From the IMG/VR virus record IMGVR_UViG_3300010163_000019, positions 9,372 through 73,371 of that record: a DNA stretch of 64,000 nt; one strand, written 5' to 3'. Under the pieces are notes generated by a model. It was given only the letters and a program-made list of their open reading frames with translations, did no database searches and had not been told where the DNA came from. The position numbers and the translations under genes are program-made. The stretch comes from a virus (taxonomy: Duplodnaviria; Caudoviricetes). Positions 3,186 through 64,000 of this stretch are shown here, piece after piece. How positions within the stretch are numbered: the stretch's first letter is position 1; each line of letters starts with the position of its first letter.

Positions 3186-3437
3186 ATAAAAACGCAATTT
3201 GATCAGGAGCAGAGGAAATATTATACCAACATATAAATTATTATATACTTGCTCAAAAACAGGAATTAAAGTATATACAAATGGAATTTGTAAGAAAATT
3301 GTATATCCGAATAGAAAAATAAAATATATGAAACACTGAAAATCAGGATTTCTTTGCCATATTTTTAGATAAAGAAGTTAGTCAAAAAGAGAAGTAAGTA
3401 TTGGAAACAATATTTATTTCAAAGGAGGGTTAACTTT

Positions 3438-4001
3438 TTGGCTGAAAAGAAAGGCAATAATTACATAATTGATAACAAAAATGGTGTTGCAAAAATTGAA
3501 TTGCAAAGAAGAGGAGACGATAGTTTATGGACTATTATTGATTTAGAAGACTTGGAAAGAGTTTTGAATTTTCCTTTCACATGGTCTGCAAAATATGATC
3601 CTGATTTAGATCAATACTATGCAGAATCTACTATTCACAAAAAACATAATGGAAAAAGATGGTCAACATCAATGAAACTGCACAAGTTTATTATGAATGT
3701 TGAGGAATATAAAGTTGTGGATCACATTAATCATGATACATTGGATAATACAAAAGGAAATTTAAGGGTTATTTCTCATAGCAATAATTCAATGAACAGA
3801 AAATCAAGAAACAGCAATAACAAGTCTGGATATCGGAATGTTTGCTGGAGTAAAAGTGATAATAAATGGATTGTACAGTTACAAGTTAATAAAAAGAATA
3901 CAGTTCTTGGAAAATTTCCTAAAGATCAGTTAAAAGAAGCAGCGAAGTTTGCGGAGGAAAAGAGAAAAGAACTATATGGAGAATTTGCTGGATTTAATTA
4001 A
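3438..4001 (+). CDS. HNH homing endonuclease with AP2 domain
   Basis: VDHINHDTLDN..NLR....N HNH motif; SGYRNVCWSKSDNKW AP2-like C-terminus. Confidence 0.85.
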   Translation: MAEKKGNNYIIDNKNGVAKIELQRRGDDSLWTIIDLEDLERVLNFPFTWSAKYDPDLDQYYAESTIHKKHNGKRWSTSMKLHKFIMNVEEYKVVDHINHDTLDNTKGNLRVISHSNNSMNRKSRNSNNKSGYRNVCWSKSDNKWIVQLQVNKKNTVLGKFPKDQLKEAAKFAEEKRKELYGEFAGFN

Positions 4002-4045
4002 AATCCCACGACATCAGAATTTCATCCAGAGAAGGAGAATGTTTA

Positions 4046-4621
4046 ATGAAAATAGAACAAACATATATTGCAGATGATGGCAAAAGATTTAATGATAGAA
4101 ATAAATGTATAAAATATGAAAGCGAATTAAGAGAGAAAGAACGAAATGAAATTCTTCAGGAAATCAAAAAATTAGATTTAGCAATTTGGAAAAAGTATTA
4201 TCCAGATTATAAAGAAAAAAATGAACCAGAATTGTATCAATCACCTAAGTGGTTACAGAATGATATAGTCGCAATAATTATAGATTTCCCTGAAAGCGAA
4301 AAAGACATAATTTCTATTATTAATAGAGCAAAATATGGGAAAGAAATTATTGCAGATTATTTGAGGTTTGATGTAATAAAAAATGAAATCAAGGTAAGAA
4401 TTGATTTTTTATCAGCGTTATGTTCAATAGAGTCTGGATCAGATTTATCAAGTAGTATTCAATATTCTTTATCGTCTAAAGACTTAATGGAACTTGCAAA
4501 ATTACATAAAGCGAATAGGTGTAGAAGGAAAATTGAAGAATTACTAACAAGTTGTAATTTTCATTATGAGTGCGGAAAATTTATCAATAAAGAATATGAA
4601 GAGTTTTTAAAGAAACCTTAA
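4046..4621 (+). CDS. Hypothetical protein
   Basis: 191 aa ORF with RBS. Confidence 0.75.
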   Translation: MKIEQTYIADDGKRFNDRNKCIKYESELREKERNEILQEIKKLDLAIWKKYYPDYKEKNEPELYQSPKWLQNDIVAIIIDFPESEKDIISIINRAKYGKEIIADYLRFDVIKNEIKVRIDFLSALCSIESGSDLSSSIQYSLSSKDLMELAKLHKANRCRRKIEELLTSCNFHYECGKFINKEYEEFLKKP

Positions 4622-4641
4622 AACTCGTATTTTAAGGCAGG

Positions 4642-4830
4642 ATGGAGGAAAATATTATGAATGTAAGAGACATTCTGAAAAACGAATTAAAACAGAATCA
4701 TAACAATATCATTACTGTTATGGAAAATCATGTAATGCAGATGATTAGATGTGATAGGCACACTGCTAATTTAGTAGCAAATGAGATATTGGAACTTGAC
4801 AGACAAGCAGAAGATATATTGTCGGAATAA
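4642..4830 (+). CDS. Hypothetical protein
   Basis: 62 aa ORF. Confidence 0.6.
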   Translation: MEENIMNVRDILKNELKQNHNNIITVMENHVMQMIRCDRHTANLVANEILELDRQAEDILSE

Positions 4831-4920
4831 AATTCGCATTTCAACTACTAAATTATTAAGAAAATAGAAAAGTATTTGGAGAAATATAGTACAGATATTT
4901 TTTATTATGGAGGAAAATAT

Positions 4921-7845: not shown

Positions 7846-8039
7846 TGGACTTAAAATCTAAGTTTTAAGTGATAAAAAAGATAATTCATATGAAAGTAAA
7901 AATTACATTTAAGATAAATTAGCATAATGAGCTTAAATATTAAAGTATAATTGAATATTTGGAAATATTAAAAAGCATTTGGAGAATAAGTATCCAGATG
8001 CTTTTTATTATACAAAAAACAAAAATAAACAAGGAGAAG

Positions 8040-8963
8040 ATGATTATGAGATTATCAAGAACTGAAGTAAGGAAACAAAAATTAATGACCAAAGACCAGA
8101 TGATTGACAAAATGAGGAAAATGAACGCCAAACATACTGACAACATGGAAAGTCGCAAGAATGCGCTAAAAACACTTATGAGTGGCATTCCAGTTGGAAA
8201 TAAAGTCTTTGTGTTGGTTCCAGTGGAAGACTTGCATATTGATGAATCCTATCAACGCCCTGTTCAGAGTCATGTAAGGACGATTGCGGAAGAATGGGAT
8301 GATATGAAATGTGATCCTTTAAAAATCAATTACAGAGAAGATGGTTATTTTTATGTCTGGGACGGACAGCATAGATTGGTTGCATTAAAAATCATGGGGA
8401 TTGATTATGTCCTTTGTGTTATAACAGTTGGATTAACACAGAAACAAGAAGCTGCATTGTTTGGTTGTCAAGGAAACGGAATTAAGAAACCTGATCCCTA
8501 TGATATTTTTAAGGCTAATGTGTGTTCTGGGGAACAAATTGATTCGGAAATTAAAAGTATGTGTGACAAATACGACCTTGATGTTAAAAGAAATAGTAAA
8601 CGTGCTGGAAATTTATCTTGTCTTACTCTTGCAAGAGAAATCTTTAAAAGAGGAAGTGAAGAACAAGAATGTTTTGAATGGGTGTTACAGTTGTTACATA
8701 ATGCAAAATGGCATGAATTTGCACAGTCTCATTGCCACAGAATAATAAATGCATTATTTGAAGTACGGAAAGTATTTGAGGAAGAAAATGAATTTATACA
8801 ACGAAAATTAACACTTTATTTGAAGAAAACCAATCCAGATGAGCTACTACTCAATGCTACAATAAAATATCCACAGTTTAAAGATGAGAGTAAGAAGATT
8901 AAATTATATTTAATTGATGTTGTAAATAATAACGAAATGATAATGAACACTTTTGGAAATTAA
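8040..8963 (+). CDS. ParB/Srx-fold protein (DUF6551-like)
   Basis: LHIDESYQR, YVWDGQHRL motifs. Confidence 0.75.
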   Translation: MIMRLSRTEVRKQKLMTKDQMIDKMRKMNAKHTDNMESRKNALKTLMSGIPVGNKVFVLVPVEDLHIDESYQRPVQSHVRTIAEEWDDMKCDPLKINYREDGYFYVWDGQHRLVALKIMGIDYVLCVITVGLTQKQEAALFGCQGNGIKKPDPYDIFKANVCSGEQIDSEIKSMCDKYDLDVKRNSKRAGNLSCLTLAREIFKRGSEEQECFEWVLQLLHNAKWHEFAQSHCHRIINALFEVRKVFEEENEFIQRKLTLYLKKTNPDELLLNATIKYPQFKDESKKIKLYLIDVVNNNEMIMNTFGN

Positions 8964-9055
8964 AAACAGGGTGGAAGATTTATTTACATATTCATGATAT
9001 AAAGGCGCAGAAATGAGTTTATGCTTTCTCATTAATAAAAAAGCAGTAAAAAATT

Positions 9056-10096
9056 ATGATTGGAGGTAATGATATGCAGCAAGCATTAGTATTCGTAAAT
9101 AATTCAGATAGTGATAATACAGAAAGAAAAATATGCGTATATCAAGGAGTAACTTATTTTATCAATACTGAGGACAACACAGGAAAAAATTATATTGAAG
9201 TTAGAGGAACAAAGAAATATCTTGATAAAAATGGAAAGGTTTCTAATAAGCAGCCAAATACACGAAATGTAAGGGACTGCATAAATTCATATGAGGATAT
9301 GCATAAAATACATGATTACTTAATACAACGGAAAAAGTGGAATATATATTTATTGTTTATATTAAATTATAATTTAAGCAGACGAATTGGAGACCTTTTG
9401 AAAGCAAAATGGTCAGATTTTTTTGATGAAGACTGGAAAATTAAAAAGTCATGGGAACTGATAGAGGAAAAAACACATAAGAAAAATGAGATAAAGATTA
9501 ATAAGGCAGTAAGATATGCATTTAAAACTTATTTTGAAAAGGAAACTGCCTTTGAGAAAACAGATAAAAACTATTATGAACCAATATTTAAACAGCTTTA
9601 TGGAACCCATAAAGGCAAGGTTCTTTCCCAGGAAAGGTATAGACAGATTTTAATAAAAATAGGAGATGAACTAGGACTTGAGAAAAAAGTACGTTCTCAT
9701 GGTTTTAGGCGGGGAGCATTTACAAATATGATTGAGTCGCATCCAAATGATCCAAAAGCGAAAATTACAGTGATGAATATATCAAAACATGGAAGTGAAT
9801 CAACGCTGAGTCATTATATAGGAGAAGAAGATAAGGAAAAGGAACGATATCTTGATGATTTAGGTGCTGATTTTGAAAAGTATGTTATAAAGGGAGAAGA
9901 AGTTCCATTTCATAAAAAAGTACCACAGGTAGTCTGTGATACCTCAAAACTTATGGAGTGTATGAGAGATGCAGCATCATATTTTATGATTAAAGGGATA
10001 GAAATGTCAAATGAGTCAGATCCCAAAGTTATTTTGCAAGTGGTAAATGAATCTATGAAAAAGTTAGAGGAAATATTAGAGAATATAACAGAGTAA
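9056..10096 (+). CDS. Tyrosine recombinase/integrase family protein
   Basis: Catalytic set present: LSRRIGDL (R), EEKT (K), SHGFRR (HxxR), SKHGS (H), SHYIG (Y). Confidence 0.85.
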   Translation: MIGGNDMQQALVFVNNSDSDNTERKICVYQGVTYFINTEDNTGKNYIEVRGTKKYLDKNGKVSNKQPNTRNVRDCINSYEDMHKIHDYLIQRKKWNIYLLFILNYNLSRRIGDLLKAKWSDFFDEDWKIKKSWELIEEKTHKKNEIKINKAVRYAFKTYFEKETAFEKTDKNYYEPIFKQLYGTHKGKVLSQERYRQILIKIGDELGLEKKVRSHGFRRGAFTNMIESHPNDPKAKITVMNISKHGSESTLSHYIGEEDKEKERYLDDLGADFEKYVIKGEEVPFHKKVPQVVCDTSKLMECMRDAASYFMIKGIEMSNESDPKVILQVVNESMKKLEEILENITE

Positions 10097-10270
10097 AAAA
10101 TGATATTCTTATGTAGCAAAATGTGATATAATAAGAAAGGGCAACACATGAGCAGAAAATTTGAATTATGGAAAGAGGATTCTTAAAAGTAAAAAGTAAA
10201 AAGTGGAAAGAAGAAAGAGTTAAAGTAGGGAAAGATTGATTTTATTGTGTAAATGTTGTGTATAAATACA

Positions 10271-10299
10271 TTGACTGTTGTGTAATTAGTGTGTATAAT
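10271..10299 (+). promoter_or_regulatory. Sigma70-type promoter of hicAB
   Basis: TTGACT-17 bp-TATAAT, with repeated TGTGTA boxes around it. Confidence 0.75.
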
Positions 10300-10321
10300 A
10301 TAAAGATAGGGAGGAGCACTA

Positions 10322-10498
10322 ATGAAACAAAGAGATTTGATTAAAAAGCTGGAAGCAGGAGGCTTTGTATTTGATCATCATGGAAGTAACCATGATATAT
10401 ACAGGCGAGGAGAAAATGAATTTGAAACGGTTGAAAGACATAAAGAAATACCAGAAAGATTAGCACAAGCGATTTTAAAGAGACGAGGATTGAAATAG
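10322..10498 (+). CDS. hicA: HicA mRNA interferase toxin (58 aa, absent from ORF track)
   Basis: MKQRDLIKKLEAGGFVFDHHGSNHDIY...VERHKEIPERLAQAILKRRGLK; GGAGG RBS. Confidence 0.9.
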   Translation: MKQRDLIKKLEAGGFVFDHHGSNHDIYRRGENEFETVERHKEIPERLAQAILKRRGLK

Positions 10499-10975: not shown

Positions 10976-11017
10976 TATAATAAATACTTGATTTCAAAGA
11001 GAAAAGGAGATTAACTT

Positions 11018-11329: not shown

Positions 11330-11375
11330 ATATGGGAAATGAAATCCGGTTTTCATGTGGAAAAGGTGATAAACA

Positions 11376-12453: not shown

Positions 12454-12510
12454 GATTTAGCAATAGAATGTTGCTTTTAAGTCATAAATATCAGACAAGC
12501 ATCATATAAT

Positions 12511-13261: not shown

Positions 13262-13582
13262 ATGAATGTTCAGTTTTATGATGATCTAATGAGCACAGAA
13301 GGACTTATGAGTATTAACACAATGGCAAAAGAACTTGGAATCGGGGAGTATAAGCTGTTTGCTTTTCTTAGAAAGAAAAAAGTATTTTTCTATGATAAGG
13401 ATATGGTCAATGTGCCTTATGAGCGATTTCGGAAAGAAGGCACATTTGCTGTTAAGGAAACACTATGTTATGATGGAAATTTTCGTAGTGTTACATATGG
13501 AACGAAAATGGGACTTGATTATGTAAGAAAGTTGCTAAGAAAGAGTGGGTATTATGATAATCCTATATCAGATATAAATTAA
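13262..13582 (+). CDS. Phage antirepressor KilAC (ANT) domain protein
   Basis: FYDDL...SINTMAKELGIG..KLFAFLR...PY..F..G.F motif series. Confidence 0.8.
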   Translation: MNVQFYDDLMSTEGLMSINTMAKELGIGEYKLFAFLRKKKVFFYDKDMVNVPYERFRKEGTFAVKETLCYDGNFRSVTYGTKMGLDYVRKLLRKSGYYDNPISDIN

Positions 13583-22430: not shown

Positions 22431-22649
22431 GTGAATATCAAAACATATAAAATTAAACAATATAATTCAACATACAAACATATTCTTGTGGTTGATGGAG
22501 AGCCAGTTTGTGCAGCACAAGGCGGAAAACAGATGAGTAAATGTATCCAATATCTTAGTGGATATAATGTGAATATTAGTGATGGCAGAATTAAAAAGGT
22601 ATTGAACAAGTATCGACACGCTTTAGAAAATGAAGAGTGTAAATCATAA
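22431..22649 (+). CDS. Hypothetical protein
   Basis: 72 aa ORF, GAGGTG RBS. Confidence 0.65.
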   Translation: MNIKTYKIKQYNSTYKHILVVDGEPVCAAQGGKQMSKCIQYLSGYNVNISDGRIKKVLNKYRHALENEECKS

Positions 22650-23514
22650 AAGCCGCATTTCATTGGGATATTTTATTTATTTTAGAGAGGATAAAACAAT
22701 GTATAATACAGATTTTGATATGAAAAAAGCAAGATATTCTGTTATAAAAAAGACAGAATTTATTAAGTATCATAATGGATTGAATGTTGGTTGGAATCGT
22801 TTTATTTACATGGAATCAAAATATGGTATTTATACTTACTCTTTAGAAGATGCAGCGACTTTTATAATAAAGGAACTAATAAAGTTTTATTCAAGTTATG
22901 GTTTAAAAAATAAAGATTTTTACGAAAGAAGAAAACTGTTGCTTGATGAATATGAAAAGTATGTTGTTATGGATTTAAGATTAGAAAAATCCATTTCTGG
23001 ACGAGTTTCTTTCCTTGAAAAAGGAGTATTTGATACTTATGTATTAGGCTCAGTTAGCATCTGGAGTTTTAATGCTACATATCCTTTAATCAATAATATT
23101 ATAGCATGGAATAAAAATAGAATTGATTTAAAATATTTATATCCTGTTTATGTGGTTGATGAAGAACATTATAGATATTCATGGCAAAAAAGGCAGCATA
23201 GACCAAGATTCCATAGTAAAAGATATAAACCTTGTCTTGGAATTCCCAAAAGGGAAAAAGTGGAAGGTTCTGATCCTGAATATAGTTGCGTCTTGTCTGC
23301 AAGACAGAAGAATAGAGAACGGACTTGCAACTGGGGAAAGACATATCATAAGAATAGAAATAATGTTCCTGGTGATTGGAAACATTACAATAAATGCCGG
23401 AAGCAATGGGCAAAGAATATTGAAAATCCGTCATATGAAAAGTTGTCAAAAGCAGTTTGGAAACAAGATCTATTAGAGGAGGAAAAGTTATTTGAACAAT
23501 TTAATGATTTTTGA
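22630..23514 (+). CDS. Hypothetical protein
   Basis: 294 aa ORF. Confidence 0.7.
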   Translation: MKSVNHKSRISLGYFIYFREDKTMYNTDFDMKKARYSVIKKTEFIKYHNGLNVGWNRFIYMESKYGIYTYSLEDAATFIIKELIKFYSSYGLKNKDFYERRKLLLDEYEKYVVMDLRLEKSISGRVSFLEKGVFDTYVLGSVSIWSFNATYPLINNIIAWNKNRIDLKYLYPVYVVDEEHYRYSWQKRQHRPRFHSKRYKPCLGIPKREKVEGSDPEYSCVLSARQKNRERTCNWGKTYHKNRNNVPGDWKHYNKCRKQWAKNIENPSYEKLSKAVWKQDLLEEEKLFEQFNDF

Positions 23515-25691: not shown

Positions 25692-25991
25692 TTGGGGGTG
25701 ATGGTAATGAGTTATATAATGTTGCAATTTAAGGAAGTCGCAAAAAATATTTTAGATTTGGAAGAAAAGAAAAAGCTGATGCGTTCCAATTTTGAGAAAT
25801 CCACAAGTGAATTATCTGAGTGTTTTCATTGGATTATGGAGGCAGAATTAGATGGTAGAAAGCATACATGTCTTACTATTTATACATGTCCAGAGTTATA
25901 TGCAAAAGAATTAGAAGGTATGGGATTTGTTGTAGAAGAACAAAGAAATGTTTTTGATACTCTTTGTGGATATGATATTAAATGGCAATGA
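25692..25991 (+). CDS. Hypothetical protein
   Basis: 99 aa ORF. Confidence 0.65.
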   Translation: MGVMVMSYIMLQFKEVAKNILDLEEKKKLMRSNFEKSTSELSECFHWIMEAELDGRKHTCLTIYTCPELYAKELEGMGFVVEEQRNVFDTLCGYDIKWQ

Positions 25992-26017
25992 AACTAACAT
26001 TTTATTCAGATAAATGA

Positions 26018-28753: not shown

Positions 28754-28897
28754 ATCTTTGAATTTTAAGAAAACATATCAGATTACAAATAAACAGATGA
28801 GAACATAAACTTAGTCCTTGCAAATGGTCCATATGTTATTGGAAATATATGAAAAATAATAAAACACGAGTTTTATGTGAAATGGAGGTAAAACCGT

Positions 28898-29356: not shown

Positions 29357-29386
29357 TGGGTAGCAATAAAATTTCCGTTTTATTTA

Positions 29387-29794
29387 TTGAGAGAAGGAGA
29401 CAAATGTATGATTAATTTAAATGATTTAACTGTTGAGGATTTAAAAGATATTGAAGAATTACAGAAATTTAGAAAAGAGTCTCAAAGATTATATAATATT
29501 GTTGTTAATAATCAGAAAGTGCCATTGATTCTTGATGATAAGAATAGATATAAATTATGGGATGATACAAACAATGCTGAGTATCTTGCACTCATTGATG
29601 GTGAATGGATATGGCAAGCAAGATATTTACATCAAAAGTATGATGTTCCAATTAATGTAGAAAAAATATATAAGACTATGGTAAATGCCTATGAAATGGA
29701 AAAGGATATAACGAAGGGGGGGTTTGCTAATGGCAATAAGGAAGCAATAGGCTATTTTACGGCTTATGTAAACAAATTGATAACCAAGCAATGA
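29387..29794 (+). CDS. Hypothetical protein
   Basis: 135 aa ORF. Confidence 0.7.
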   Translation: MREGDKCMINLNDLTVEDLKDIEELQKFRKESQRLYNIVVNNQKVPLILDDKNRYKLWDDTNNAEYLALIDGEWIWQARYLHQKYDVPINVEKIYKTMVNAYEMEKDITKGGFANGNKEAIGYFTAYVNKLITKQ

Positions 29795-30189
29795 ATCGAA
29801 GGTTTTATATAATAAATTTGGAAGTTTGGTATGACAAAGTTAATAGACAGCATGTTTGATATAAATTGTAATACTTGTATCTGCAACAAATGTAGGCATA
29901 ACACTAAATATGGATTTAATCAATGTTTTAATTGTCGTGATTGTTATGAAGGAAATAATCATTGTGAAGAATGTTCTATGTTTGAAGAAGGAGTGGATGA
30001 AGAGTGACAGATAATGAAAGAGAACTAATTGGCATAATTGAAACATTATGTGATACAGTTAGTGATTCTCCTTGTGGTTGTGATGCTTGCCCCTATGTTG
30101 ATACAAAAACTGATGGACAATGCGAAGTATATAATGTTGTTGAAAAATGTAAATAAAAGAAACATTTTAATTGGAAAGAAGGTGAATTT

Positions 30190-30561: not shown

Positions 30562-30649
30562 GTAAGCATTCTGATGCATTTAATAACAAGCAGAGTGTTT
30601 ATTAACACAAAATAAATCCTTTAAGTAGTGAATAGAATCCCACGTTTCA

Positions 30650-31844: not shown

Positions 31845-32144
31845 ATGAAAAAGAAAGACTTAAAATCTGGAATGATTGTTATGACCAATAACGGATTTTT
31901 CTATTTGGTGTTACGTGATACGGGTATGGATATTTCTGAATACAAAGACAAAGATGTCTTTCTTGGAGTTAGTGCAAGCGGAAATATTATATCAGGGTGG
32001 ATGAGATTATCAGATTATAGTGATGAATTAGAAAATAAAGATAATGATTATACTATTGCAGAAGTATTTGTTGTAAATCGTGCAGCTAATATTGGAAAAA
32101 TAAAACACTATAAAAGCATATGGAAAAGAGAATTGAATAGATAA
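31845..32144 (+). CDS. Hypothetical protein
   Basis: 99 aa ORF. Confidence 0.7.
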   Translation: MKKKDLKSGMIVMTNNGFFYLVLRDTGMDISEYKDKDVFLGVSASGNIISGWMRLSDYSDELENKDNDYTIAEVFVVNRAANIGKIKHYKSIWKRELNR

Positions 32145-32178
32145 ATCTTGTATTTCAAAAGGAGAAAGGAAAGAGAAG

Positions 32179-33467: not shown

Positions 33468-33512
33468 GTAATCAATAAATTCGAGATTTTAAGGTAGAAA
33501 AGAGGTGATATA

Positions 33513-33934: not shown

Positions 33935-34351
33935 ATGAAAGAGATTATAGACTTTAAGATAGAAATGAGGGATTTTATATTTTCGATGGGTGATGTTGGA
34001 AAAGCTTTAAAATTGATTTCTGAAAGAATATTGAATACAAATTATGATGATTATTGTGAAAATGAAACATGTAAACCATATGGATGTTTAGAGTGTAAGA
34101 ACTTTGGACGACAGGAGGGATATAATCAACAAAGAGGAAGTTTTATTTTTCAACACTTTAAATGTAAAAAGCAAACAGATAGAGATATGTATAATCATGA
34201 CAATACATACAACATATTTGATATAGAATCTGATTGTAGTCCATACTTTCATTATGATAATGCAAAAGGAGAGTGCCCATATTTTGAGTGTAGTGAAAAT
34301 GATTTGGTTTATATGTCCGAAAAAGAGAAAAGGAAGTGTATAGGGCGATAA
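33935..34351 (+). CDS. Hypothetical Cys-containing protein
   Basis: 138 aa ORF. Confidence 0.65.
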   Translation: MKEIIDFKIEMRDFIFSMGDVGKALKLISERILNTNYDDYCENETCKPYGCLECKNFGRQEGYNQQRGSFIFQHFKCKKQTDRDMYNHDNTYNIFDIESDCSPYFHYDNAKGECPYFECSENDLVYMSEKEKRKCIGR

Positions 34352-34385
34352 ATAATCTGTTTTGTTGTTAAAATTAAAAATAATA

Positions 34386-38651: not shown

Positions 38652-39439
38652 AAGAAGAATTGATACAAGATAATGGAATCTACAATTATGATGCATCTGA
38701 TTTTATTCATGCACTATATGAGGATTATGGAGATGAAAGTATAGACATGTTTCTTTGTGATTTTCCCTATACATTTAAAGGAAAGAACAGAGTGACAGCA
38801 AATAAATGGGATTTACCAATAGATGATAAAGAGTTTTTTGAAATTGCTATGAAAATGCTAACACCAGAGGGGTGTATAGCATTAACAGCAGGGCAACCAT
38901 TTACAAGTTATTTAGTAATGAATCATCTTGACTGTTTTAAATATGAATGGATTTGGGAGAAAGATAATGGTAGCAATTTTTCAAGTGTGAATCATCAACC
39001 ATTTAAGGTTCACGAATCTGTATTAATTTTTGGGAAAGCTCCAACTACATATAATAAAGCAGAAAGATATATGAAGTATAATCCGCAATTTACAGATGGA
39101 AAGCCTTATAAGATGAAGAGAAGTGGAATGACTGAGAATTTGGCTACTTCATCTGGTTATGAAAGAACAAATGGAGAATATGAAGGTAAACGTTATCCAA
39201 GAAGTGTTGTCAAATTTAACTTGGAAAAGGGACTTCATCCTACACAAAAACCTACAAAATTATTTGAGTATCTCATTAAAACTTATACTAACGAAGGCGG
39301 GCGGGTTGTTGATGTGTGTTGTGGTAGTGGAACAACTGCTAAAGCGGCACAGAACACAGGAAGAGTTTATATTGTAAATGATAATAATTTGGATTATGTG
39401 AGAATCTCTGAAAAACGATTAGGTGTTATTAATGGTTGA
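38648..39439 (+). CDS. Beta-class N4/N6 DNA methyltransferase
   Basis: LCDFPYT, YEWIWEK, HPTQKP, VVDVCCGSGTT. Confidence 0.9.
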   Translation: MKEELIQDNGIYNYDASDFIHALYEDYGDESIDMFLCDFPYTFKGKNRVTANKWDLPIDDKEFFEIAMKMLTPEGCIALTAGQPFTSYLVMNHLDCFKYEWIWEKDNGSNFSSVNHQPFKVHESVLIFGKAPTTYNKAERYMKYNPQFTDGKPYKMKRSGMTENLATSSGYERTNGEYEGKRYPRSVVKFNLEKGLHPTQKPTKLFEYLIKTYTNEGGRVVDVCCGSGTTAKAAQNTGRVYIVNDNNLDYVRISEKRLGVING

Positions 39440-49781: not shown

Positions 49782-50118
49782 AGTAATCAATTATATAGAA
49801 AAAATGTATGATATTAAATTGATGGATTATCAGAAAGAATTTGTTAAGCACATTATCCAAGGAGATGTGATTTATACTCCAAGATGTTTTGGAAGAAGCA
49901 TGATTTATAACGGTTATGCTGATTATTTGAAAAATGTTATTGGTAAAGAAACCGACTATTCTGTAGATCCAAATGATTTTGATAAGATTTATACATATAG
50001 GGATGTACCAATAGGTGCCTTATATCCAAGTGAGCATATTGAAAGTGCTATGAATAAAAATAAGAAACTGTTTGAAAAAGAATATGAGTGTAAGTATGGA
50101 CTAAATACGAAGTCTTAA
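49729..50118 (+). CDS. Hypothetical protein
   Basis: 129 aa ORF. Confidence 0.65.
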   Translation: MICIKSKKGIEKMLKTSEVINYIEKMYDIKLMDYQKEFVKHIIQGDVIYTPRCFGRSMIYNGYADYLKNVIGKETDYSVDPNDFDKIYTYRDVPIGALYPSEHIESAMNKNKKLFEKEYECKYGLNTKS

Positions 50119-50135
50119 AATTCTTATTTCAAAGG

Positions 50136-56986: not shown

Positions 56987-56993
56987 GGTATGA

Positions 56994-58184
56994 ATGGGAA
57001 GAAAAACAGGAGAAGAATTAGAGCAAGTTAAAAGAAAATATGGAGTAGATCGGTTATGGAGTTGGTCACGTTTTAACTCTTATCACAATAGCCATTTTGA
57101 GTATTACTTAAAATACATAAAAAATGTGCCAGAAGATAGACAGGATTGTATTTACACAGTTACAGGCGGTATGTCGCATGAGATAATGGAGAACTTATAC
57201 TTAGGAAATATTAAGTATGAAGATATGGATAGCGAATTTGAAGATGCATGGATGACAGCCGGTATTGCAGAACTTAAATTTGATAGAAATGATAGCGAGA
57301 AAAACAAGAAGATTGCTGATAAATACTATAAAAACCTAAAACATTTCTTTAATAATCACCATACAATCCCTTACAAAGTTGAAATTGAAAGATTTATTAG
57401 TGTCCTGATAGGTAAAAATGTATTTCAGGGATACATAGATGTATGTTTTAAAGATAGTGATGGGTGTTTCAATATCTTAGATTGGAAGACATCTTCTATA
57501 TATAAGGGAGAAAAAGCATTAAATGAATGTGGGCAGTTGGTTGTTTATGCAATAGGTCTACATCAGATGGGTGTTCCATATGAAAAGATAAAGATTTGTT
57601 GGAACTTCTTGAAATATGTAAAAGTTGATTGTGAACAGACTAATGGAAAGTGGACTACAAGAGAAATTGATAGATGTGAAATAGGTAATAAACTACAGAC
57701 AAGTGTAAAAATGTGGTTAAAGAAATTAGGATATGAAAATGAACTTGTAGAATATCTTGATATATTGGCACAGACAAATGATATAAAGTGTCTGCCAAAT
57801 GATGTACAAGCAAAATATAAATTCCATGATTGTATTGTCTATGTGGATTTGACACAGGATCTTATCAACAGATGGGTTACAGACATTACCAATACGATTG
57901 ATGAGATTGTGGAAAAAGAAGAGAAATATGAAAATGAAAAATTAATTAATAAAGAGAATGCCGAAATGGTATTTTTTGACACTCCAGAACAAGTCGAAAA
58001 GCAAAGCTATTATTTTTCAACATTATGTGCATATTCCCCCAATTTACATAAACCATATAAAAAATATCTGGACGCATTAGCAGCACAGCAAAATGGAGAT
58101 GACTTTTTTAGCGGTGTTGGTAGTGGTATATCTGAAAACAGTGATGATAAAGACGGAGATTTATCTTGGTTAGACAATCTGTAA
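56994..58184 (+). CDS. PD-(D/E)xK nuclease (Cas4/RecB-like)
   Basis: WSWSR, EIERF, QGYIDV...ILDWKT, QL..Y. Confidence 0.8.
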   Translation: MGRKTGEELEQVKRKYGVDRLWSWSRFNSYHNSHFEYYLKYIKNVPEDRQDCIYTVTGGMSHEIMENLYLGNIKYEDMDSEFEDAWMTAGIAELKFDRNDSEKNKKIADKYYKNLKHFFNNHHTIPYKVEIERFISVLIGKNVFQGYIDVCFKDSDGCFNILDWKTSSIYKGEKALNECGQLVVYAIGLHQMGVPYEKIKICWNFLKYVKVDCEQTNGKWTTREIDRCEIGNKLQTSVKMWLKKLGYENELVEYLDILAQTNDIKCLPNDVQAKYKFHDCIVYVDLTQDLINRWVTDITNTIDEIVEKEEKYENEKLINKENAEMVFFDTPEQVEKQSYYFSTLCAYSPNLHKPYKKYLDALAAQQNGDDFFSGVGSGISENSDDKDGDLSWLDNL

Positions 58185-58198
58185 AAGGTGGTGGTTGA

Positions 58199-61100
58199 TT
58201 GAATTATACAGTATATCATCTACATAGTGATTTGAGTAACGGAGTTACGAATATAGATAGTGTTACCAAATATAACGAATATATTTCATATGCACAATCA
58301 TTAGGAATGAAAACTATGGGATTTTCAGAGCATGGTTCTATACTGGAATGGGTGCATAAAAAAACAAAAATTGAATCATGTGGCATGAAATATATCCATG
58401 CAGAAGAATTTTATGTGACAGAACAATTATACTTTGAGCCTGATACAACAGAATTGTGCGAGTCGTTACTTGGTACAGATAAAAAAGAAGCACAAGAGGA
58501 AATTAGTAAATATATTGAAGAGAATAAAACTCAAAAAAGAGACAATTATCACTGTGTTTTGATCGCCAAAAACTATGCTGGGGTAGTAGAATTGAATGAA
58601 TTATCTTCCAGAGCGTTTGTAAGAGACGGTCATTTTTATTACAATCCTAGAATTTCATTTGATGAGTTGATTTCTACGTCAGACAACATAATTATATGCA
58701 CAGCATGTATTGGCGGCATATTAGCCAGTGGGACAAAGGAAATACAAGAGAAGTTTTTGCAGTTCCTAATTGATAATAAGCATAGATGTTATTTAGAAAT
58801 ACAGCATCATTGTGATGATATGCAGATTAAGTATAATCAATATCTTGCTTTTATTTCAAAGAAACATGGAATACCTTTGATTGCAGGAACAGATACACAT
58901 GCTTTAGATGAAAGACATTTGCTTGGCAGAACAATTATGCAGAAGTCAAAAGAGGTTAAATTTGATAATGAATCAAATTGGGATCTGACTTTTAAGAGTT
59001 ATGATGAACTTGTAAAGGCATACGAAAAGCAGAGAGCATTATCTAAAGGTATTTATTTGGAAGCAATAGAAAATACTAATGTTATGGCTGATTCCATAGA
59101 AGAATTTAGTTTGGATTATTCAAAGAAATATCCTAAATTATACAATGATTCTATGGGAGTTTTTAAACAGAAAATATTAGATGGTATTAAGAAGAGGAGT
59201 GTAAATAAGTATAGCAATTTTCAAGAATATAAAGATAAGATTGTGTATGAGATAGAAACATACAAACATAATGACGCAATCGATTTCATGTTGCTTGAAG
59301 AAGACTATAAGAGAGAACTTAGAAAACAGGGTGTACATTATGGATATTCAAGAGGATCTGTGTCTGGAAGTATCATAGCATATTTGCTTGGAATTACAGA
59401 TGTTGACAGTATTAAATACAATCTGAATTTTGAGAGGTTCATGAATAAGGAGAGAATTAGTCTTGCAGATGTAGATTCAGATTGGTTCAGTGAAGATAGG
59501 TGGAAAGTCAGAAAATACCTATTTGAAAAAGAAGGGTTGTATTGTTGTAATATTATTACTTTTAACACAATAAAAATGCGAGGTGCAATTAAGGATGTTG
59601 GAAGGGCGTTAGGAATGACACCACAAGAAACACAGGAATTATCTAATCTTGTTCAGGAGGATGAAAATAAAAAAGAATTTGTTGATGAAAAGGTTAGAAA
59701 TAAACATAAGGAATTGTTTGAGTATGTAGACATTGTGGTTGGTACTATTACATCACTTGGCAGACACGCAGCCGGACTTGTCGTATCTCCACATGAAGTA
59801 GACAAGGCGTTTGGTACATTGTATATATCTTCAGATGATAAGCCGATTTCACAGATAAATATGAAAGAGATAGATTCTTTGAATTATGTGAAGTTGGATA
59901 TTCTTGGACTTGATTGTGTTGGACTAATAGATAAAACATGTAAAGCTGTTGGCATTCCATTTATTACACCAGATAATATTGATTTCAATGATAAAAATGT
60001 ATGGGACGATATTGCAAAAGATACTACTTTGATTTTTCAGTTTGAATCTGATTTTGCTGGTTCATATCTAAGAGATATTCTAAGCGAGTCAACCATCAAA
60101 AATATCAAAAAACAGAATCCAAACTTCTCATATATAGACTTAATGAGTATGGCTAATGGTGCAATCAGGCCAGCAGGTGCTTCTTACAGAACAGAATTAT
60201 CACAAGGAATTTATAGGGATAATGGACATGTTGCATTGAATGATTTTCTGACGCCTACCCTTGGCTATTTAGTATATCAGGAACAGATCATAGAATTTTT
60301 GTATAAGTTTTGTGGTTTTACAATGGGTGAAGCTGATATTGTGCGTAGGCACTTTAGTAAGAAAACAGGTACAGAAAATGATATTCCAGTCATTAAAGAT
60401 GGCGGGTATATGCTTGATGATAAAGGAAAACCAGTAAATAACCACTACATCAAAGGATTTATACAAACAATGAAAGATGAATATGATGTGGAGAATGAAA
60501 AGGCAGAAGAACTAATTGTAAACTTTCTTCAAGTAATTATAGATGCGTCAGCCTACTTGTTTTCTAAAAACCATGCTGATCCATATTCATTTTTGGGATT
60601 TGCCTGTGGTTATTTAAGGCATTATTACACGATTGAAACTTTAACGTCTGCTCTCAATATTTATACATCTGACAAAGAAAAGTCTTTGAATATCAAAGAA
60701 TATATCTTGTCAAAAGGTTATACGATAGAGCCAATAAGATTCAGAAAATCAAAAGCAGAATATGAGTATGACAAAGATGGTGGTACGATTTATCAGGGAA
60801 TTGGAGCAATTAAATATTGTAATGATACCATTGCTGAAGAACTATATGCACTAAGAAATAATAAATACGATTCATTTGTAGAACTTATAAAGGATATAAA
60901 AGAGCATACATCTGTAAATTCCAGGCAGTTAGAAATCCTTACTGGTTTAAATTTCTTTTCAGAGTTTGGCAAAAATAAATATCTGTTAGGAGTTATACAG
61001 GTTTATGACAAATTTGCAACTTGTAAGCAGATAAAAAAGAGCAAATTAGAAGAATTAGGGGTTTCTGAATATATAGCGAAGAAGTATTCAGGAAAAGAAA

Positions 61101-61513
61101 CAAATTCTTTATTTAAAGAAATAGACAATATTGGTTTGGTTAAGGAATTGTGTAGCCATATAGAGAATAGGGAAATGGGAATCATTGAGATGATCAAATT
61201 TGAAAAGGAACATCTTGAAATGGTGGTATATACCAATCCTAAAGTTAGTGACAATTATTATATCATTGTAGACTACAAAACATTTAAAGATGCTACAAAA
61301 CCATATTTTACAGCACGAAAAGTAAGGACTGGTGAAGAAATACATTCAAGGATTAAACAGGGTAGAATATTTAAGGAAAGTCCGTTTGGATTATATTCGG
61401 TACTGAAAATAAAGGAATTTGATAAAGAATTTAAAAAGAAACCTATCAACGGTGTCTGGACAGTAACAGATGAGTTAGAAGATGTGTTGACAAATTATGA
61501 AGTAATTAAGTAG
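58199..61513 (+). CDS. dnaE: DNA polymerase III alpha subunit (PHP + family C polymerase)
   Basis: HLHSD, FSEHG, GYSRGSVSGS, FERF, LADVDSD, HAAG, KLDILGL, YQEQ, FSKNHA. Confidence 0.95.
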   Translation: MNYTVYHLHSDLSNGVTNIDSVTKYNEYISYAQSLGMKTMGFSEHGSILEWVHKKTKIESCGMKYIHAEEFYVTEQLYFEPDTTELCESLLGTDKKEAQEEISKYIEENKTQKRDNYHCVLIAKNYAGVVELNELSSRAFVRDGHFYYNPRISFDELISTSDNIIICTACIGGILASGTKEIQEKFLQFLIDNKHRCYLEIQHHCDDMQIKYNQYLAFISKKHGIPLIAGTDTHALDERHLLGRTIMQKSKEVKFDNESNWDLTFKSYDELVKAYEKQRALSKGIYLEAIENTNVMADSIEEFSLDYSKKYPKLYNDSMGVFKQKILDGIKKRSVNKYSNFQEYKDKIVYEIETYKHNDAIDFMLLEEDYKRELRKQGVHYGYSRGSVSGSIIAYLLGITDVDSIKYNLNFERFMNKERISLADVDSDWFSEDRWKVRKYLFEKEGLYCCNIITFNTIKMRGAIKDVGRALGMTPQETQELSNLVQEDENKKEFVDEKVRNKHKELFEYVDIVVGTITSLGRHAAGLVVSPHEVDKAFGTLYISSDDKPISQINMKEIDSLNYVKLDILGLDCVGLIDKTCKAVGIPFITPDNIDFNDKNVWDDIAKDTTLIFQFESDFAGSYLRDILSESTIKNIKKQNPNFSYIDLMSMANGAIRPAGASYRTELSQGIYRDNGHVALNDFLTPTLGYLVYQEQIIEFLYKFCGFTMGEADIVRRHFSKKTGTENDIPVIKDGGYMLDDKGKPVNNHYIKGFIQTMKDEYDVENEKAEELIVNFLQVIIDASAYLFSKNHADPYSFLGFACGYLRHYYTIETLTSALNIYTSDKEKSLNIKEYILSKGYTIEPIRFRKSKAEYEYDKDGGTIYQGIGAIKYCNDTIAEELYALRNNKYDSFVELIKDIKEHTSVNSRQLEILTGLNFFSEFGKNKYLLGVIQVYDKFATCKQIKKSKLEELGVSEYIAKKYSGKETNSLFKEIDNIGLVKELCSHIENREMGIIEMIKFEKEHLEMVVYTNPKVSDNYYIIVDYKTFKDATKPYFTARKVRTGEEIHSRIKQGRIFKESPFGLYSVLKIKEFDKEFKKKPINGVWTVTDELEDVLTNYEVIK

Positions 61514-61523
61514 GCGAGGTTAT

Positions 61524-63821
61524 ATGTTGAAAAGTAACAATGAAAAAGAAGTATTATTTAAAGGAAGAATTGTCAGACCTATATATGAAAGTGAAGATTA
61601 CAGGGTATATGCGGTAGATGTCGATAAAGATACCTACCCAGATATCAAACTCACAAAGTATGGGAATGCAACAATATCTGGCGAGATACATGAGTTGGGT
61701 AAAGGAATCGAATATGAGATAAAGGCGGTTGAACAGCTAACAAAAAATGGTTGGGGATACAAAGTTATCAATATCCGAAGAAACAAACCACAATCTGCTG
61801 ATGACATGTATGTTTTCTTGCAAGAAATCTTGACACTCAATCAGGCACAGACATTATATAAGGTATATCCAGATATTGTTGATCGTGTAATGAATAATAA
61901 TCTTAATGATATCGATTTAAATAAATTGCATGGAATTAAGGAATATACGTTTAATATTATTAAAGATAAGATTGTTGAAAATTTCTGCCTGGCAGAATTA
62001 GTGGTAGAGTTTCAAGGATTATTGAGCCTTCCCATGTTGAAAAAGTTGTATGAAAAGTATGCATCAATTACCATGATTAAGAAGAAACTCAAAGAAAATC
62101 CGTATAAATGTTTATGTGGATTAGCCAGAGTGGGATTTGCAACAGCAGATAGCATTTTGCTTGAATTGGAAAAGGCTTCAAAAGAGAATGTAAAAAATGG
62201 TAAACCAGAAATTATTGAGTTTGAGTCAGAATTAAGAACCAGCAATCATAGATGTTTATCCTGTATGTTATACCTATTGGAGAAAAATGAGGAAGATGGA
62301 CACACATTAATGTCAATCAATGAGTTAAGGAATCAATGTATGAAGATGGTTCCGGCATGTTCTAATCATTTTGTAGAGTGTATGAAACACGAAAGTATTT
62401 ATTATGACAAGGAATCTATGGTTGTTTCGATCAGAAGGACATATGAAATAGAGAAATATATAGCAGAGAAGATAGTTGCTGGTCTTGCAAATACAAAAAA
62501 TAGATGGGATTTTGATTATAAGAAATATCACACTGTTAATGGCTGTGAATTATCAGATGAACAGGTAAAAATCGTAGAGAATATCTGTAAATATAATGTC
62601 TGTATTTTGAACGGAGCAGGAGGAACAGGAAAATCCTTTTGTACTCAGGCAGTCATCAATATGCTGAAGGATAACAATAAATCATTTAGACTGTTTTCTC
62701 CGACTGGCAAAGCAGCAAAGGTATTATCTGATTATACAAAAGAACATGCTATGACAATACATAGAGGGCTTGGATATATGCCGCCTGATACATGGAGTTT
62801 TAATGAAGAACACAAATTGGATTGTAATGTGCTGATTATTGACGAGTTTTCCATGACAGATATTTTCTTATTCAAAAGAGTATTGGATGCCGTTGACTTT
62901 AATAAAACAAAGTTGCTATTGATAGGAGATAATGCACAGCTTCCATCAGTATCATGTGGGAATCTGCTTCATGATTTTATGCAGACAAATATTATTCCAA
63001 CGGTTACATTAACAAAAGTTTTCCGTTATGGAGAAGGTGGATTGATGAAAATTGCAACAGATGTTCGCTTTTGTAAAGAATATCTTACAGGAATTAATAA
63101 TCAATTTACATGGTTTGGTACAAATAAAGACTATGCCTTTGTCAATGTTGGTAGTGATATCATGGTGAAAAATGCAGTTGCTTTGTACAGTAAATTGCTT
63201 TCACAGGGATATAAAGTTGAGGATATACAGTTGCTTACATTATATAAGAAGGGAGATGTCGGAACCGTAGTAATAAACAACGCAATACAGAAAGTTGCTA
63301 ATCCTAATTATGGCAGCACAGAATGTATGAAAGTTGGAGATACAGTTTATTTCAAAGGGGATCAGATTATACAAAATGTCAATAACTATCATGCACAGCT
63401 ATTTGTAGATGATGATTATGGATTTGATGAAGATTTGAGAGAAACTTTTATTGCAAATGGAGAAACGGGTATTGTAAAGGATGTATTTACAAGTTATCTA
63501 ATCATTGATTTTGATAGTGTAAAGGTAAAGTATTACAGAAATGATATGCAGATGGTTGGTCTTGGATATTGTATCACGATCCATAAATCACAGGGAAGTT
63601 CAATAAAGGTGGTGATTTTGCTTACGCCTCAGTCTCATGCGTATATGCTAAATTCCAATCTCATATATGTAGGATTAACCAGAATGAAAGAGAAGTGTTT
63701 TCATTTAGGGAATATAGATACTGTAAACCAGTCTGTAAAAAAGAAAGCAAATTTTGTTAGAAATACATTTATGCAGAGATTGATAAAGGAAAGTTGCGAG
63801 AATTTGAAGAAAACAGCATAA
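61524..63821 (+). CDS. recD2: ATP-dependent RecD-like helicase
   Basis: NGAGGTGKS, TIHR, IIDEFSM, GDNAQLPSV, ITIHKSQGS, YVGLTR. Confidence 0.9.
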   Translation: MLKSNNEKEVLFKGRIVRPIYESEDYRVYAVDVDKDTYPDIKLTKYGNATISGEIHELGKGIEYEIKAVEQLTKNGWGYKVINIRRNKPQSADDMYVFLQEILTLNQAQTLYKVYPDIVDRVMNNNLNDIDLNKLHGIKEYTFNIIKDKIVENFCLAELVVEFQGLLSLPMLKKLYEKYASITMIKKKLKENPYKCLCGLARVGFATADSILLELEKASKENVKNGKPEIIEFESELRTSNHRCLSCMLYLLEKNEEDGHTLMSINELRNQCMKMVPACSNHFVECMKHESIYYDKESMVVSIRRTYEIEKYIAEKIVAGLANTKNRWDFDYKKYHTVNGCELSDEQVKIVENICKYNVCILNGAGGTGKSFCTQAVINMLKDNNKSFRLFSPTGKAAKVLSDYTKEHAMTIHRGLGYMPPDTWSFNEEHKLDCNVLIIDEFSMTDIFLFKRVLDAVDFNKTKLLLIGDNAQLPSVSCGNLLHDFMQTNIIPTVTLTKVFRYGEGGLMKIATDVRFCKEYLTGINNQFTWFGTNKDYAFVNVGSDIMVKNAVALYSKLLSQGYKVEDIQLLTLYKKGDVGTVVINNAIQKVANPNYGSTECMKVGDTVYFKGDQIIQNVNNYHAQLFVDDDYGFDEDLRETFIANGETGIVKDVFTSYLIIDFDSVKVKYYRNDMQMVGLGYCITIHKSQGSSIKVVILLTPQSHAYMLNSNLIYVGLTRMKEKCFHLGNIDTVNQSVKKKANFVRNTFMQRLIKESCENLKKTA

Positions 63822-64000
63822 AAATTATCTATATATAGTAGTTTGCAAAATAAAAGCTACTATATATAGACTAAAAATGGCAATGAAATAGGACTTTCAA
63901 AGAGTGACATTATGTAACATCACATATCCACTTTTGAATAGAGTTAAAGTTTTTTAATGACATTTGGAATTTAATGTCTTGCTGGAATTCTTGTGCTGGT

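Follow-up and report, generated by a model that had tools for sequence, protein, structure and literature searches.

A dyad-symmetric site with private spacers at accessory-gene junctions of SPbeta-like phages: candidate joints for slot-by-slot gene exchange

Introduction

In the Cre/loxP system, the lox site consists of two inverted 13 bp arms around an asymmetric 8 bp spacer, and the partners of an exchange share that spacer. Heterospecific lox sites have different spacers and therefore do not cross-react, which makes it possible to swap a segment lying between two such sites with precision. In nature, a phage carries one lox site; heterospecific sets come from engineering, and we know of no natural system of this kind. 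Among natural plasmids, those of Acinetobacter carry pdif sites, which are 28 bp long, have distinct XerC and XerD arms and are acted upon by the host recombinases XerC/XerD (PMC6449649).

In this study, we analysed a 64,000 nucleotide stretch of viral DNA (the window), whose contig is a fragment (44% complete) of a gut SPbeta-like phage. About 25 gene junctions in the window are marked by a dyad-symmetric 16 bp site, which comprises TRAAW, a six-base spacer and TTTYA, and Bacillus phage SPbeta has its early-gene junctions filled with this word as well. The arms are generic and inverted (AATRAAAY / RTTTYATT), and the 6 bp spacers are asymmetric and private. The conserved part of each arm spans 5-8 bp, as compared to 11 bp in dif and 11-13 bp across dif, lox and FRT.

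Results

A first-pass annotation of the window had reported 15 exact and five one-mismatch copies of the site. All 15 exact copies were confirmed, and each of the others (3187, 12464, 30634, 34349 and 44018) is off the pattern at a single position. Four of these five have a same-centre counterpart in G001, the closest relative of the window contig and itself a fragment (63% complete); three of the counterparts are perfect and one again carries a single mismatch. Five copies absent from the annotation (10981, 13263, 22647, 30154 and 39915; "new" below) appear to be real, and further pattern matches at 6030, 7873 (minus strand) and 49353 are coding or doubtful. The sites, which are listed without strand (.), are as follows:

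3187..3202, site with one mismatch (position 15 G), spacer ACGCAA; just past a TAG stop; G001 lacks a copy with this spacer
4619..4634, site, spacer CTCGTA; stop codon is positions 1-3; next start 22 nt on
4828..4843, site, spacer TTCGCA; stop codon is positions 1-3
7852..7867, site, spacer TCTAAG; collinear in G001 with same spacer, flanks unrelated
10981..10996, site (new), spacer ACTTGA; start codon 21 nt downstream; compared with G001
11340..11355, site, spacer TCCGGT; same spacer in G001, flanks unrelated
12464..12479, site with one mismatch (position 3 G), spacer TGTTGC; G001 copy perfect, same spacer
13263..13278, site (new), spacer GTTCAG; compared with G001
22647..22662, site (new), spacer GCCGCA; stop codon is positions 1-3; compared with G001
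25989..26004, site, spacer CTAACA; stop codon is positions 1-3; compared with G001
28860..28875, site (pattern match), spacer CACGAG; compared with G001
29367..29382, site (pattern match), spacer TTTCCG; compared with G001
29792..29807, site, spacer CGAAGG; stop codon is positions 1-3; compared with G001
30154..30169, site (new), spacer GAAACA; left edge of a G001 homology block; same spacer at 104850 in G002
30634..30649, site with one mismatch (position 1 A), spacer CCCACG; G001 copy perfect, same spacer
32142..32157, site, spacer CTTGTA; stop codon is positions 1-3
33476..33491, site (pattern match), spacer TCGAGA; compared with G001
34349..34364, site with one mismatch (position 16 G), spacer AATCTG; G001 copy perfect, same spacer
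39437..39452, site, spacer CATCGG; left border of the minus-strand slot
39915..39930, site (new), spacer TTTTGC; right border of the minus-strand slot
44018..44033, site with one mismatch (position 1 C), spacer CCAGAG; right edge of a G001 homology block
45456..45471, site (pattern match), spacer GGTTAA; compared with G001
46605..46620, site (pattern match), spacer TCTTGG; compared with G001
50116..50131, site, spacer TTCTTA; stop codon is positions 1-3; compared with G001
63884..63899, site, spacer ATAGGA; follows a RecD2-like gene; hot spot among relatives

The site word genuinely marks gene junctions. On both strands of the whole window, the pattern matches 38 times versus 14.1 ± 4.3 expected, and a count of at least 38 was seen in none of 100 shuffles. 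Chance frequency had been estimated by hand to lie far below the density at junctions, and indeed the intergenic segments, with each stop codon kept, hold 19 copies, compared with 1.0 ± 1.0 in a mononucleotide control (2000 shuffles, maximum of 7 copies) and 1.4 ± 1.2 in the dinucleotide equivalent. The coding DNA of the window contains three copies in 60 kb. When all 5-mer dyads were scanned without bias, the site ranked first in the motif-bearing genome G002 (19 versus 0.25 expected) and in SPbeta (34 versus 0.7). In the unrelated Firmicute phages phiC2 (4 matches versus 5.4 expected) and SPP1 (0 versus 1.1), the site pattern is not in excess. The best dyad of the motif-free genome G004, AAGAA-N8-TTCTT (7 copies), lacks a stop-codon or ribosome-site context, is therefore unlike a junction motif, and was rejected as one.

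The logo of the site is AATRAAAY-N4-RTTTYATT, with a gap of strictly 6 bp between the 5-mers. The likeness to the core site of tyrosine recombinases, which the first-pass annotation had pointed out, was borne out by a spacing test, in which inverted arms around a 6 bp centre gave 24 matches versus 6.0 expected, and N3-5, N7-9 and the everted arrangement of the arms stayed at expectation. The half-sites lie ~11 bp apart, centre to centre, or one helical turn. It had also been claimed that the spacers all differ and are often GC-richer than their surroundings. The second claim stands (GC content of 0.43 versus 0.31 for the genome). As to the first, no spacer is repeated within a genome; however, chance alone would give the same result, as only 0.1-0.8 repeats are expected, and a test for the avoidance of repeated spacers therefore has no power.

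Within the accessory-gene arrays, the sites come after a stop codon and ahead of the Shine-Dalgarno sequence that follows it, and the distance to the next start codon is 20-26 nt in the window and 10-14 nt in distant relatives. The stop codon forms positions 1-3 of the left arm in seven of the 15 exact sites, rather than in eight as first counted, and in 10 sites overall. As had been noticed, there are no copies from 13263 to 22647, which covers the ParB-type operon, or from 50116 to 63884, which covers the replisome, and one copy directly follows the replisome. The flanking genes in the window are co-oriented, except for one small minus-strand gene (39497-39649), whose slot is bordered by the spacers, or barcodes, CATCGG and TTTTGC; these are 478 bp apart in the window and 4236 bp apart in G001. 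One slot bears its own promoter on the opposite strand. A comparison of the flanks revealed no conserved promoter-like sequence next to the sites. Sites are few in the half of these genomes that holds the structural genes.

The idea that accessory genes are exchanged at these sites was supported by related phages, in which breakpoints fall at the borders of the N6 spacer. The window contig and G001 have identical spacers at 20 collinear sites, and at 16 of the 20 both 80-nt flanks score no higher than background. In the arms, by contrast with the identical spacers, identity at the wobble positions is at the level of chance (0.50 at position 2 and 0.45 at position 15). Since the wobble positions of the adjoining arms change along with the genes, the points of exchange lie at the spacer borders, on both sides. 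Site 63884 is followed by at least five different downstream sequences among close relatives (83-97% nucleotide identity), and in every relative compared the divergence starts at motif positions 15-18. Of 526 homology-block ends in nine SPbeta-family genomes, 137 fall inside a site or no more than 5 nt from it, versus 9 expected at random, with block starts peaking at site positions -1 to 1 and ends at 17-18. The spacer goes with the conserved flank (72 and 72 pairs for, 8 and 1 pairs against), the order of the barcodes is collinear across all nine genomes, and breakpoints occur at motif junctions in 4.6 of eight relatives, as opposed to 1.16 at other junctions. Thus, the order and identity of the spacers are kept among related phages while the genes between them are replaced. 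One of these slots is occupied in the SPbeta family by the anti-defence genes Gad1 and Gad2.

We also inspected published laboratory recombinants of phi3Ts and SPbeta. Most of their junctions fall in long homology. The junction that has just 30 bp of homology has at its centre a shared site with the barcode TGCATA, and the sole junction called non-homologous (N1) lies within ~20 nt of a shared site with the barcode TATTCC, its exact base not being fixed by the published table and the chromosome-to-phage conversion being inferred from other entries that fit gene ends.

The window encodes one candidate for an enzyme acting at the sites, which had been proposed as their partner:

9056..10096, (+) strand, tyrosine recombinase gene (Pfam PF00589)

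As reported earlier, its catalytic residues (R, K, HxxR, H, Y) are all present in an alignment, and it has a homologue in G001 (45%). Neither the motif-bearing G002 nor SPbeta has a homologue, and on these comparisons the gene is unlikely to be their partner. The tyrosine recombinase family that does co-vary with the motif is a different one, the Xer-like YomM family, whose gene belongs to the tail-gene module. In an unbiased scan of ten complete genomes, this was the only protein family that matched the presence and absence of the motif. All 10 motif-rich genomes with a completeness of 67% or more have a YomM-like gene, and none of five motif-free complete genomes does, the latter being spread over three separate clades of the DnaE tree; the link is thus one of co-occurrence in 15 genomes, with three independent contrasts. 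The YomM-like ORF alone shows the pattern of the motif among all ORFs of G002 (283) and G008 (244). The window contig and G001 (44% and 63% complete) are both fragments and have no YomM-like gene.

Members of the YomM family have the two-domain build of Xer proteins and keep R-K-HxxR-H/W-Y, with the exception of SPbeta's own YomM, in which the second catalytic arginine is replaced by lysine. They align over their full length with XerC, XerA and XerD models, but score far below the cut-offs (92.7 versus 335 bits). SPbeta yomM lies in the late/structural gene region, and in the three distant relatives that were checked (phiL47, PBC2 and a Staphylococcus SPbeta-like phage) the gene adjoins the tape-measure gene. 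The 949-group, SEP9/6ec and L. plantarum phages, which we take to be virulent and hence without a prophage to silence, have YomM-like genes as well. Among these phages, the word is enriched in phiL47 and 8014-B2; SEP9 has a distant YomM-like gene and, with a degenerate pattern, no clear excess of the word (17/17 versus 19/15). In the SPbeta reviews and papers that we consulted, and in the paper on phiL47, the site goes unmentioned and the recombinase is not remarked upon.

Several other candidates were rejected. The HU-like (YonN) and YonO-like proteins are both present in motif-free genomes, and the only other ORF with nearly the right pattern (78 aa; G008 74315-74551) belongs to no informative family and is missing from SPbeta. 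The site is not a promoter of the YonO RNA polymerase, which starts transcription at a single site upstream of yonK (PMC5467207). Nor is it SPBRE, as the word upstream of the ten MrpR targets in SPbeta, ~AAAAATATGTATATA, differs from it.

Discussion

We see about an even chance that the sites are dif/lox-like recombination joints with private spacers, which would serve the slot-by-slot exchange of genes. A recombinase, for which the YomM family is our candidate, would bind the arms and exchange strands across the spacer. Exchange would need identical spacers, as is the case with Cre/lox and Xer/dif, and the one possible partner of a site would therefore be its counterpart in a relative that is co-infecting or resident, and different sites of one genome would not pair. 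The outcome would be a natural form of recombinase-mediated cassette exchange, in which genes are replaced slot by slot without deletions. A further, speculative role might be in circularising or resolving phage DNA. The more specific proposal, that SPbeta-like phages harbour dozens of natural "barcoded lox" sites at which one phage-encoded YomM-family recombinase acts through identical centres, is put forward tentatively, at somewhat less than even.

Several observations count against recombination joints. The conserved part of each arm is short (5-8 bp), a strict rule of spacer identity leaves the first arrival of non-homologous genes between the same barcodes unexplained, SPbeta YomM has lost a catalytic arginine, and the structural half of the genomes has few sites. 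Furthermore, the same pattern of breakpoints could arise by ordinary homologous recombination over stretches of 12-30 bp of identity if intact gene units are selected for; most of the laboratory junctions lie in long homology.

That last process is also part of a less likely alternative, in which a dimeric DNA-binding regulator uses the sites as operators, roadblocks or punctuation marks and the exchange is a by-product of short-homology recombination and selection for intact genes. The regulator could even be the YomM-like protein acting without catalysis, as MrpR, a repressor of the recombinase fold, does at SPBRE, and the missing arginine in SPbeta YomM would fit. So would the position of the sites just upstream of the Shine-Dalgarno sequence, their absence from tightly coupled operons, their dyad form with half-sites one helical turn apart, and the precedents of SPBRE/MrpR (PMC10516654) and the mycobacteriophage stoperators (PMC9283540). 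However, no regulator besides the YomM family tracks the motif, and that family otherwise retains its catalytic residues; YomM-like genes occur in presumably virulent phages, with the word enriched in phiL47 and 8014-B2; and the sites lack promoter-like conservation beside them. In addition, nothing would account for a spacer that is not contacted being conserved better than the rest of the site, with the arm wobble positions randomised.

The first-pass annotation had favoured an integron-like system, in which promoterless cassettes, each with its own site, are captured or shuffled by the recombinase encoded at 9056-10096. Small co-oriented accessory genes separated by recombinase-type sites, and a window recombinase with intact catalytic residues, gave this reading its appeal, but we now regard it as very improbable. 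It is already contradicted by the sites, which do not travel with the genes but stay put, each with its private spacer and in a fixed barcode order, while the genes change. Integron attC sites are ~57-141 bp long, have paired inner and outer boxes and move with their own cassette; the present sites, at 16-20 bp, have none of these properties. Moreover, the recombinase is missing from motif-bearing G002 and SPbeta, the NCBIfam integron-integrase models yield no match for the window recombinase and give the YomM-like protein 41 bits against a cut-off of 265, and the slot with its own promoter on the other strand is not promoterless.

Equally hard to credit is an RNA role for the site, in which polycistronic mRNA would carry it as a small hairpin or AU-rich signal for the processing, stability or translation of the next gene. 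Such a role would suit the roughly constant distance to the next ribosome-binding site and the co-directional flanking genes (bar the minus-strand gene at 39497-39649), but the 20-mers have a mean folding energy of -0.9 kcal/mol and a median arm-pairing probability in context of 0.04, A.C mismatches at positions 2/15 are as common as G.U and G-C, positions 6/11 vary independently, and a strict dyad with fixed spacing has no reason in a single-stranded signal. The arms act as independent DNA half-sites, and the site is read as DNA.

If the sites are indeed barcoded joints, co-infecting phages and prophages could use them for ordered, scar-free swaps of accessory and anti-defence genes, and the joints might also permit RecA-independent circularisation of terminally redundant DNA. 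They would explain the fast turnover of accessory genes without scrambling of the genome in large temperate and virulent Firmicute phages, and would give a role to the puzzling "integrase" beside the tape-measure gene in phiL47, PBC2 and the Staphylococcus SPbeta-like phage. Short, mutually exclusive sites and one enzyme would also be a ready-made toolkit for ordered cassette exchange. Because both SPbeta and phi3T of Bacillus subtilis have the system, it is directly testable in a standard laboratory model.

Four described systems invite comparison. SPBRE, the MrpR/YopR operator of SPbeta, is likewise a repeated intergenic element of the same phage family with a binder of the tyrosine-recombinase fold, but this 15 bp element (~AAAAATATGTATATA) sits at ~10 promoters (PMC10516654), whereas the present site is four times commoner and marks promoter-less junctions. 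The stoperators of cluster A mycobacteriophages are also short sites, present in dozens in short intergenic gaps and often touching stop or start codons; they are asymmetric, oriented with transcription, bound by a monomeric immunity repressor and devoid of a private centre (PMC9283540, PMC6550527), whereas the present site is dyad-symmetric and we identified no operator-promoter copy of it. The PeSL cassettes of T4-type phages resemble it in being intergenic repeats, located in hyperplastic regions, at which indels and replacements that distinguish close relatives begin and end, but are longer units of a sigma-70 type promoter and a terminator stem-loop, whose exchange is ascribed to homologous recombination (PMC2839356, PMC4122927); the present site is 16-20 bp long, has recombinase-type geometry and lacks a promoter or stable hairpin. 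Finally, the pdif/dif modules share with it the many dif-like sites with a 6 bp centre in accessory regions, flanking adaptive modules in varied contexts (PMC6449649). Those modules move between plasmids with their sites, whereas here the genes change and the sites stay, with arms that are short and alike, private spacers in a fixed order and a candidate enzyme that is encoded by the phage.

Occurrence of the junction site in an SPbeta-like phage lineage

The window spans bases 9372-73371 of its parent contig. This contig comprises 73,371 bp with a G+C content of 31%, carries nearly all of its genes on one strand, and is 44% complete according to CheckV. The nearest relatives of its DnaE-type polymerase belong to large Firmicute phages, and there are 66 related loci in IMG/VR. 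G002, a complete relative of 151.5 kb, has several genes in common with Bacillus phage SPbeta, namely those encoding YonO RNA polymerase, HU-like YonN, YonJ, terminase, portal, YorJ, DnaE, and a YomM-like tyrosine recombinase.

The first-pass annotation had listed 15 exact copies of the 16-bp word TRAAW-N6-TTTYA at gene junctions, every one of which we confirmed at its position, and five one-mismatch copies, which are as described; it had overlooked five further good copies (10981, 13263, 22647, 30154, and 39915). On the contig, 22 of 26 motif positions lie in the 13.6 kb of non-coding DNA, and four in the 59.8 kb of coding DNA. When every intergenic segment was shuffled separately with its stop codon retained, only 1.0-1.4 copies were expected, as against 19 observed. 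Enrichment occurs at the 6-base gap only, with gaps of 3-5 and 7-9 bases and the everted arrangement all at expectation. The extended logo reads (G)(C)AA-TRAAAY-N4-RTTTYA-W, and the next start codon usually lies 20-26 nt past the end of the site.

The SPbeta genome contains 45 copies versus 7.5 expected; most of them mark junctions of early genes, and in many the stop codon supplies positions 1-3. Relatives with a DnaE of just 45-50% identity likewise show enrichment of the word, which lies there 1-4 nt 5' of the ribosome-binding site. We found no mention of the site in the SPbeta literature accessible to us. There was no motif excess in the unrelated Firmicute phages phiC2 (28.8% G+C) and SPP1. 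The latter has zero copies of the N6 form; the same arms with 7- and 8-base gaps are over-represented in it (5 and 4 copies versus ~0.7 expected). Two motif-free relatives represented by whole records, G011 and G012, have other over-represented dyads, TAATG-N9-CATTA (8 versus 0.3) and AAAAT-N7-ATTTT (9 versus 0.3), which might be different junction words.

Site centres as positional barcodes at points of gene exchange

The close relative G001 has replisome genes ~90% identical in DNA to those of our phage (G000), yet just 32 of 123 genes are common to the two. Twenty sites pair with a G001 site that has the same 6-base centre, the pairs being perfectly collinear, and at 16 of these 20 pairs neither 80-nt flank scores above background. 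Whereas the centres of the pairs are identical, their arm wobble positions agree no more often than by chance (position 2, 0.50; position 15, 0.45); the arms therefore move along with the genes beside them, the centre remaining as a positional barcode. Downstream of site 63884 (centre ATAGGA), itself 3' of a RecD2-like gene, at least five different sequences occur among close relatives at 83-97% nucleotide identity, and divergence starts at motif positions 15-18 in every relative. Barcode sharing is limited to fairly close relatives, with very few barcodes common to G000 and G002.

Gene exchange at the sites, which had been suggested from the single sequence, was supported across nine SPbeta-family genomes, in which 137 of 526 homology-block ends fall inside a site or within 5 nt of one, compared with 9 at random. 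Blocks most often start at site positions -1 to 1 and end at positions 17-18. The centre accompanies whichever flank is kept (72 and 72 pairs, versus 8 and 1 contrary). Barcode order is collinear in all nine genomes, with differing inter-barcode distances, and breakpoints occur at motif junctions in 4.6 of 8 relatives, as against 1.16 of 8 at other junctions. We conclude that the site holds a private centre and marks the exchange points of accessory genes.

As the main rival explanation, the site may instead serve for the binding of a regulator, recombination over short homology being incidentally tolerated there, and the breakpoint data alone fit this as well as they fit a recombination site. 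The integron-like cassette system originally proposed fails, because the sites remain in place while the genes move.

Genes and slots of the window

The following features lie in and around the slots, the gene spaces between neighbouring junction sites:

8040-8963, DUF6551 ParB-fold protein
10523-10936, HicB-like antitoxin, in its own slot
12525-13004, PHD-like antitoxin domain protein, in its own slot
13262-13582, KilAC antirepressor fragment, in its own slot
14826-14900, tRNA-Lys (anticodon UUU), directly upstream of the ParB-type operon
14977-16071, GmrSD_N/DUF262 ParB-fold protein
16049-17137, ParB_N protein
17139-18035, DUF6551 ParB-fold protein
19028-21115, 695-aa protein; N-terminal part has a match to Pfam PF07638 (ECF sigma factor, region 4) at residues 119-177

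Junction sites at 10981, 11340, 12464, and 13263 lie among the HicB-like, PHD-like, and KilAC slots (10523-13582). A cluster of ParB-fold proteins extends across 8040-21991, and we found no junction sites within its ParB-type block (14977-21464). The slot at 39437-39931 holds the only clear minus-strand gene of the window, with a TTTACA-17-TATAAT promoter, an AGGAGG ribosome site, and a terminator; its product is a 48-aa peptide, basic then hydrophobic, that is type I toxin-like or holin-like. The two barcodes bordering this slot flank 4.2 kb of other DNA in G001. In the SPbeta family (L086-L092), the annotated anti-Gabija genes Gad1 and Gad2 occupy one hypervariable slot after yoqX, adjoining the CAGAGA and ACGATA barcodes; exchanged cargo therefore includes anti-defence genes.

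Co-occurrence of a YomM-family recombinase with the site

As partner of the site, the first-pass annotation had put forward the tyrosine recombinase encoded at 9056-10096. Its catalytic residues are indeed intact, but it has a homologue in G001 only, and none in G002 or SPbeta. We divided 15 related genomes according to motif excess and used the YomM-like protein of G002 as a query against them. It was present in all 10 motif-rich genomes of at least 67% completeness and in none of the five motif-free ones, whose completeness is 98% or more and which fall in three separate clades of a quick DnaE tree. The only motif-rich genomes without a match were two fragments (63% and 46% complete). HU-like and YonO-like genes do not follow the motif, being found in some motif-free genomes, and other tyrosine recombinases are present in G004 and G011, the sole motif-free genomes examined for these. 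In an unbiased comparison of all ORFs of G002 (283) and G008 (244) with ten complete genomes, the YomM-like recombinase was the sole ORF found in every motif-rich and no motif-free genome. We conclude that one Xer-like recombinase family co-varies with the site.

The YomM family has the Xer build of a SAM-like N-terminal domain and a catalytic domain, and its best relatives of solved structure are Xer proteins; the YomM-like protein aligns at full length to the XerC, XerA, and XerD models, with scores far under the cut-offs. The catalytic set R-K-HxxR-H/W-Y is retained, except in SPbeta YomM, which has Lys at the second Arg. In phiL47, PBC2, and a Staphylococcus SPbeta-like phage, the recombinase gene is immediately 5' of the tape-measure gene. 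YomM-like genes also occur in 949-group, SEP9/6ec, and L. plantarum phages. These are virulent phages, in which the protein would not serve as a lysogeny integrase. phiL47, PBC2, and 8014-B2 also contain more copies of the word than expected.

Junctions of laboratory recombinants

In a published study of phi3Ts-SPbeta recombinants, 15 of 16 junctions lay within homology, mostly of kilobase length; the same table includes one junction with just 30 bp of homology and one termed non-homologous. Chromosome coordinates were converted to phage coordinates with an offset chosen by fit to several gene ends in that table. On these coordinates, the 30-bp junction falls on SPbeta site 69424, and the same 16-mer (centre TGCATA) occurs in phi3Ts 8 nt off the published coordinate. 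This junction clearly coincides with a shared site. The "non-homologous" junction falls, though not fixed to the base, at SPbeta site 116415, whose 16-mer (centre TATTCC) occurs in phi3Ts 16 nt off the published coordinate.

Nature of the site and a proposed mechanism

Among known SPbeta elements, the MrpR operator SPBRE is a different word, and only one YonO promoter exists, so that neither is the site. A stable RNA hairpin was rejected on a mean minimum free energy of -0.9 kcal/mol for the 20-mers and a median arm-pairing probability of 0.04 in context. At the 20 intergenic sites, positions 2 and 15 combine as if independent (A..T 8, A..C 5, G..T 5, G..C 2), as they do in genome-wide tallies of G000 and G001; nor does position 6 (Y) covary with position 11 (R). 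The site behaves as a pair of DNA half-sites that vary independently and are spaced by one helical turn. It is genuine, lineage-specific, and recognised as DNA.

For the recombination-site reading, we propose that the YomM-family recombinase would bind the arms and exchange strands across the centre, and that exchange would require identical centres. Such a rule would explain both the lack of deletion between sites of one genome and the position-specific exchange. Among known systems, the site comes closest to the pdif/dif modules of Acinetobacter plasmids (PMC6449649) and the PeSL cassettes of T4-type phages; heterospecific lox sites provide an engineering analogue of the barcoded sites.
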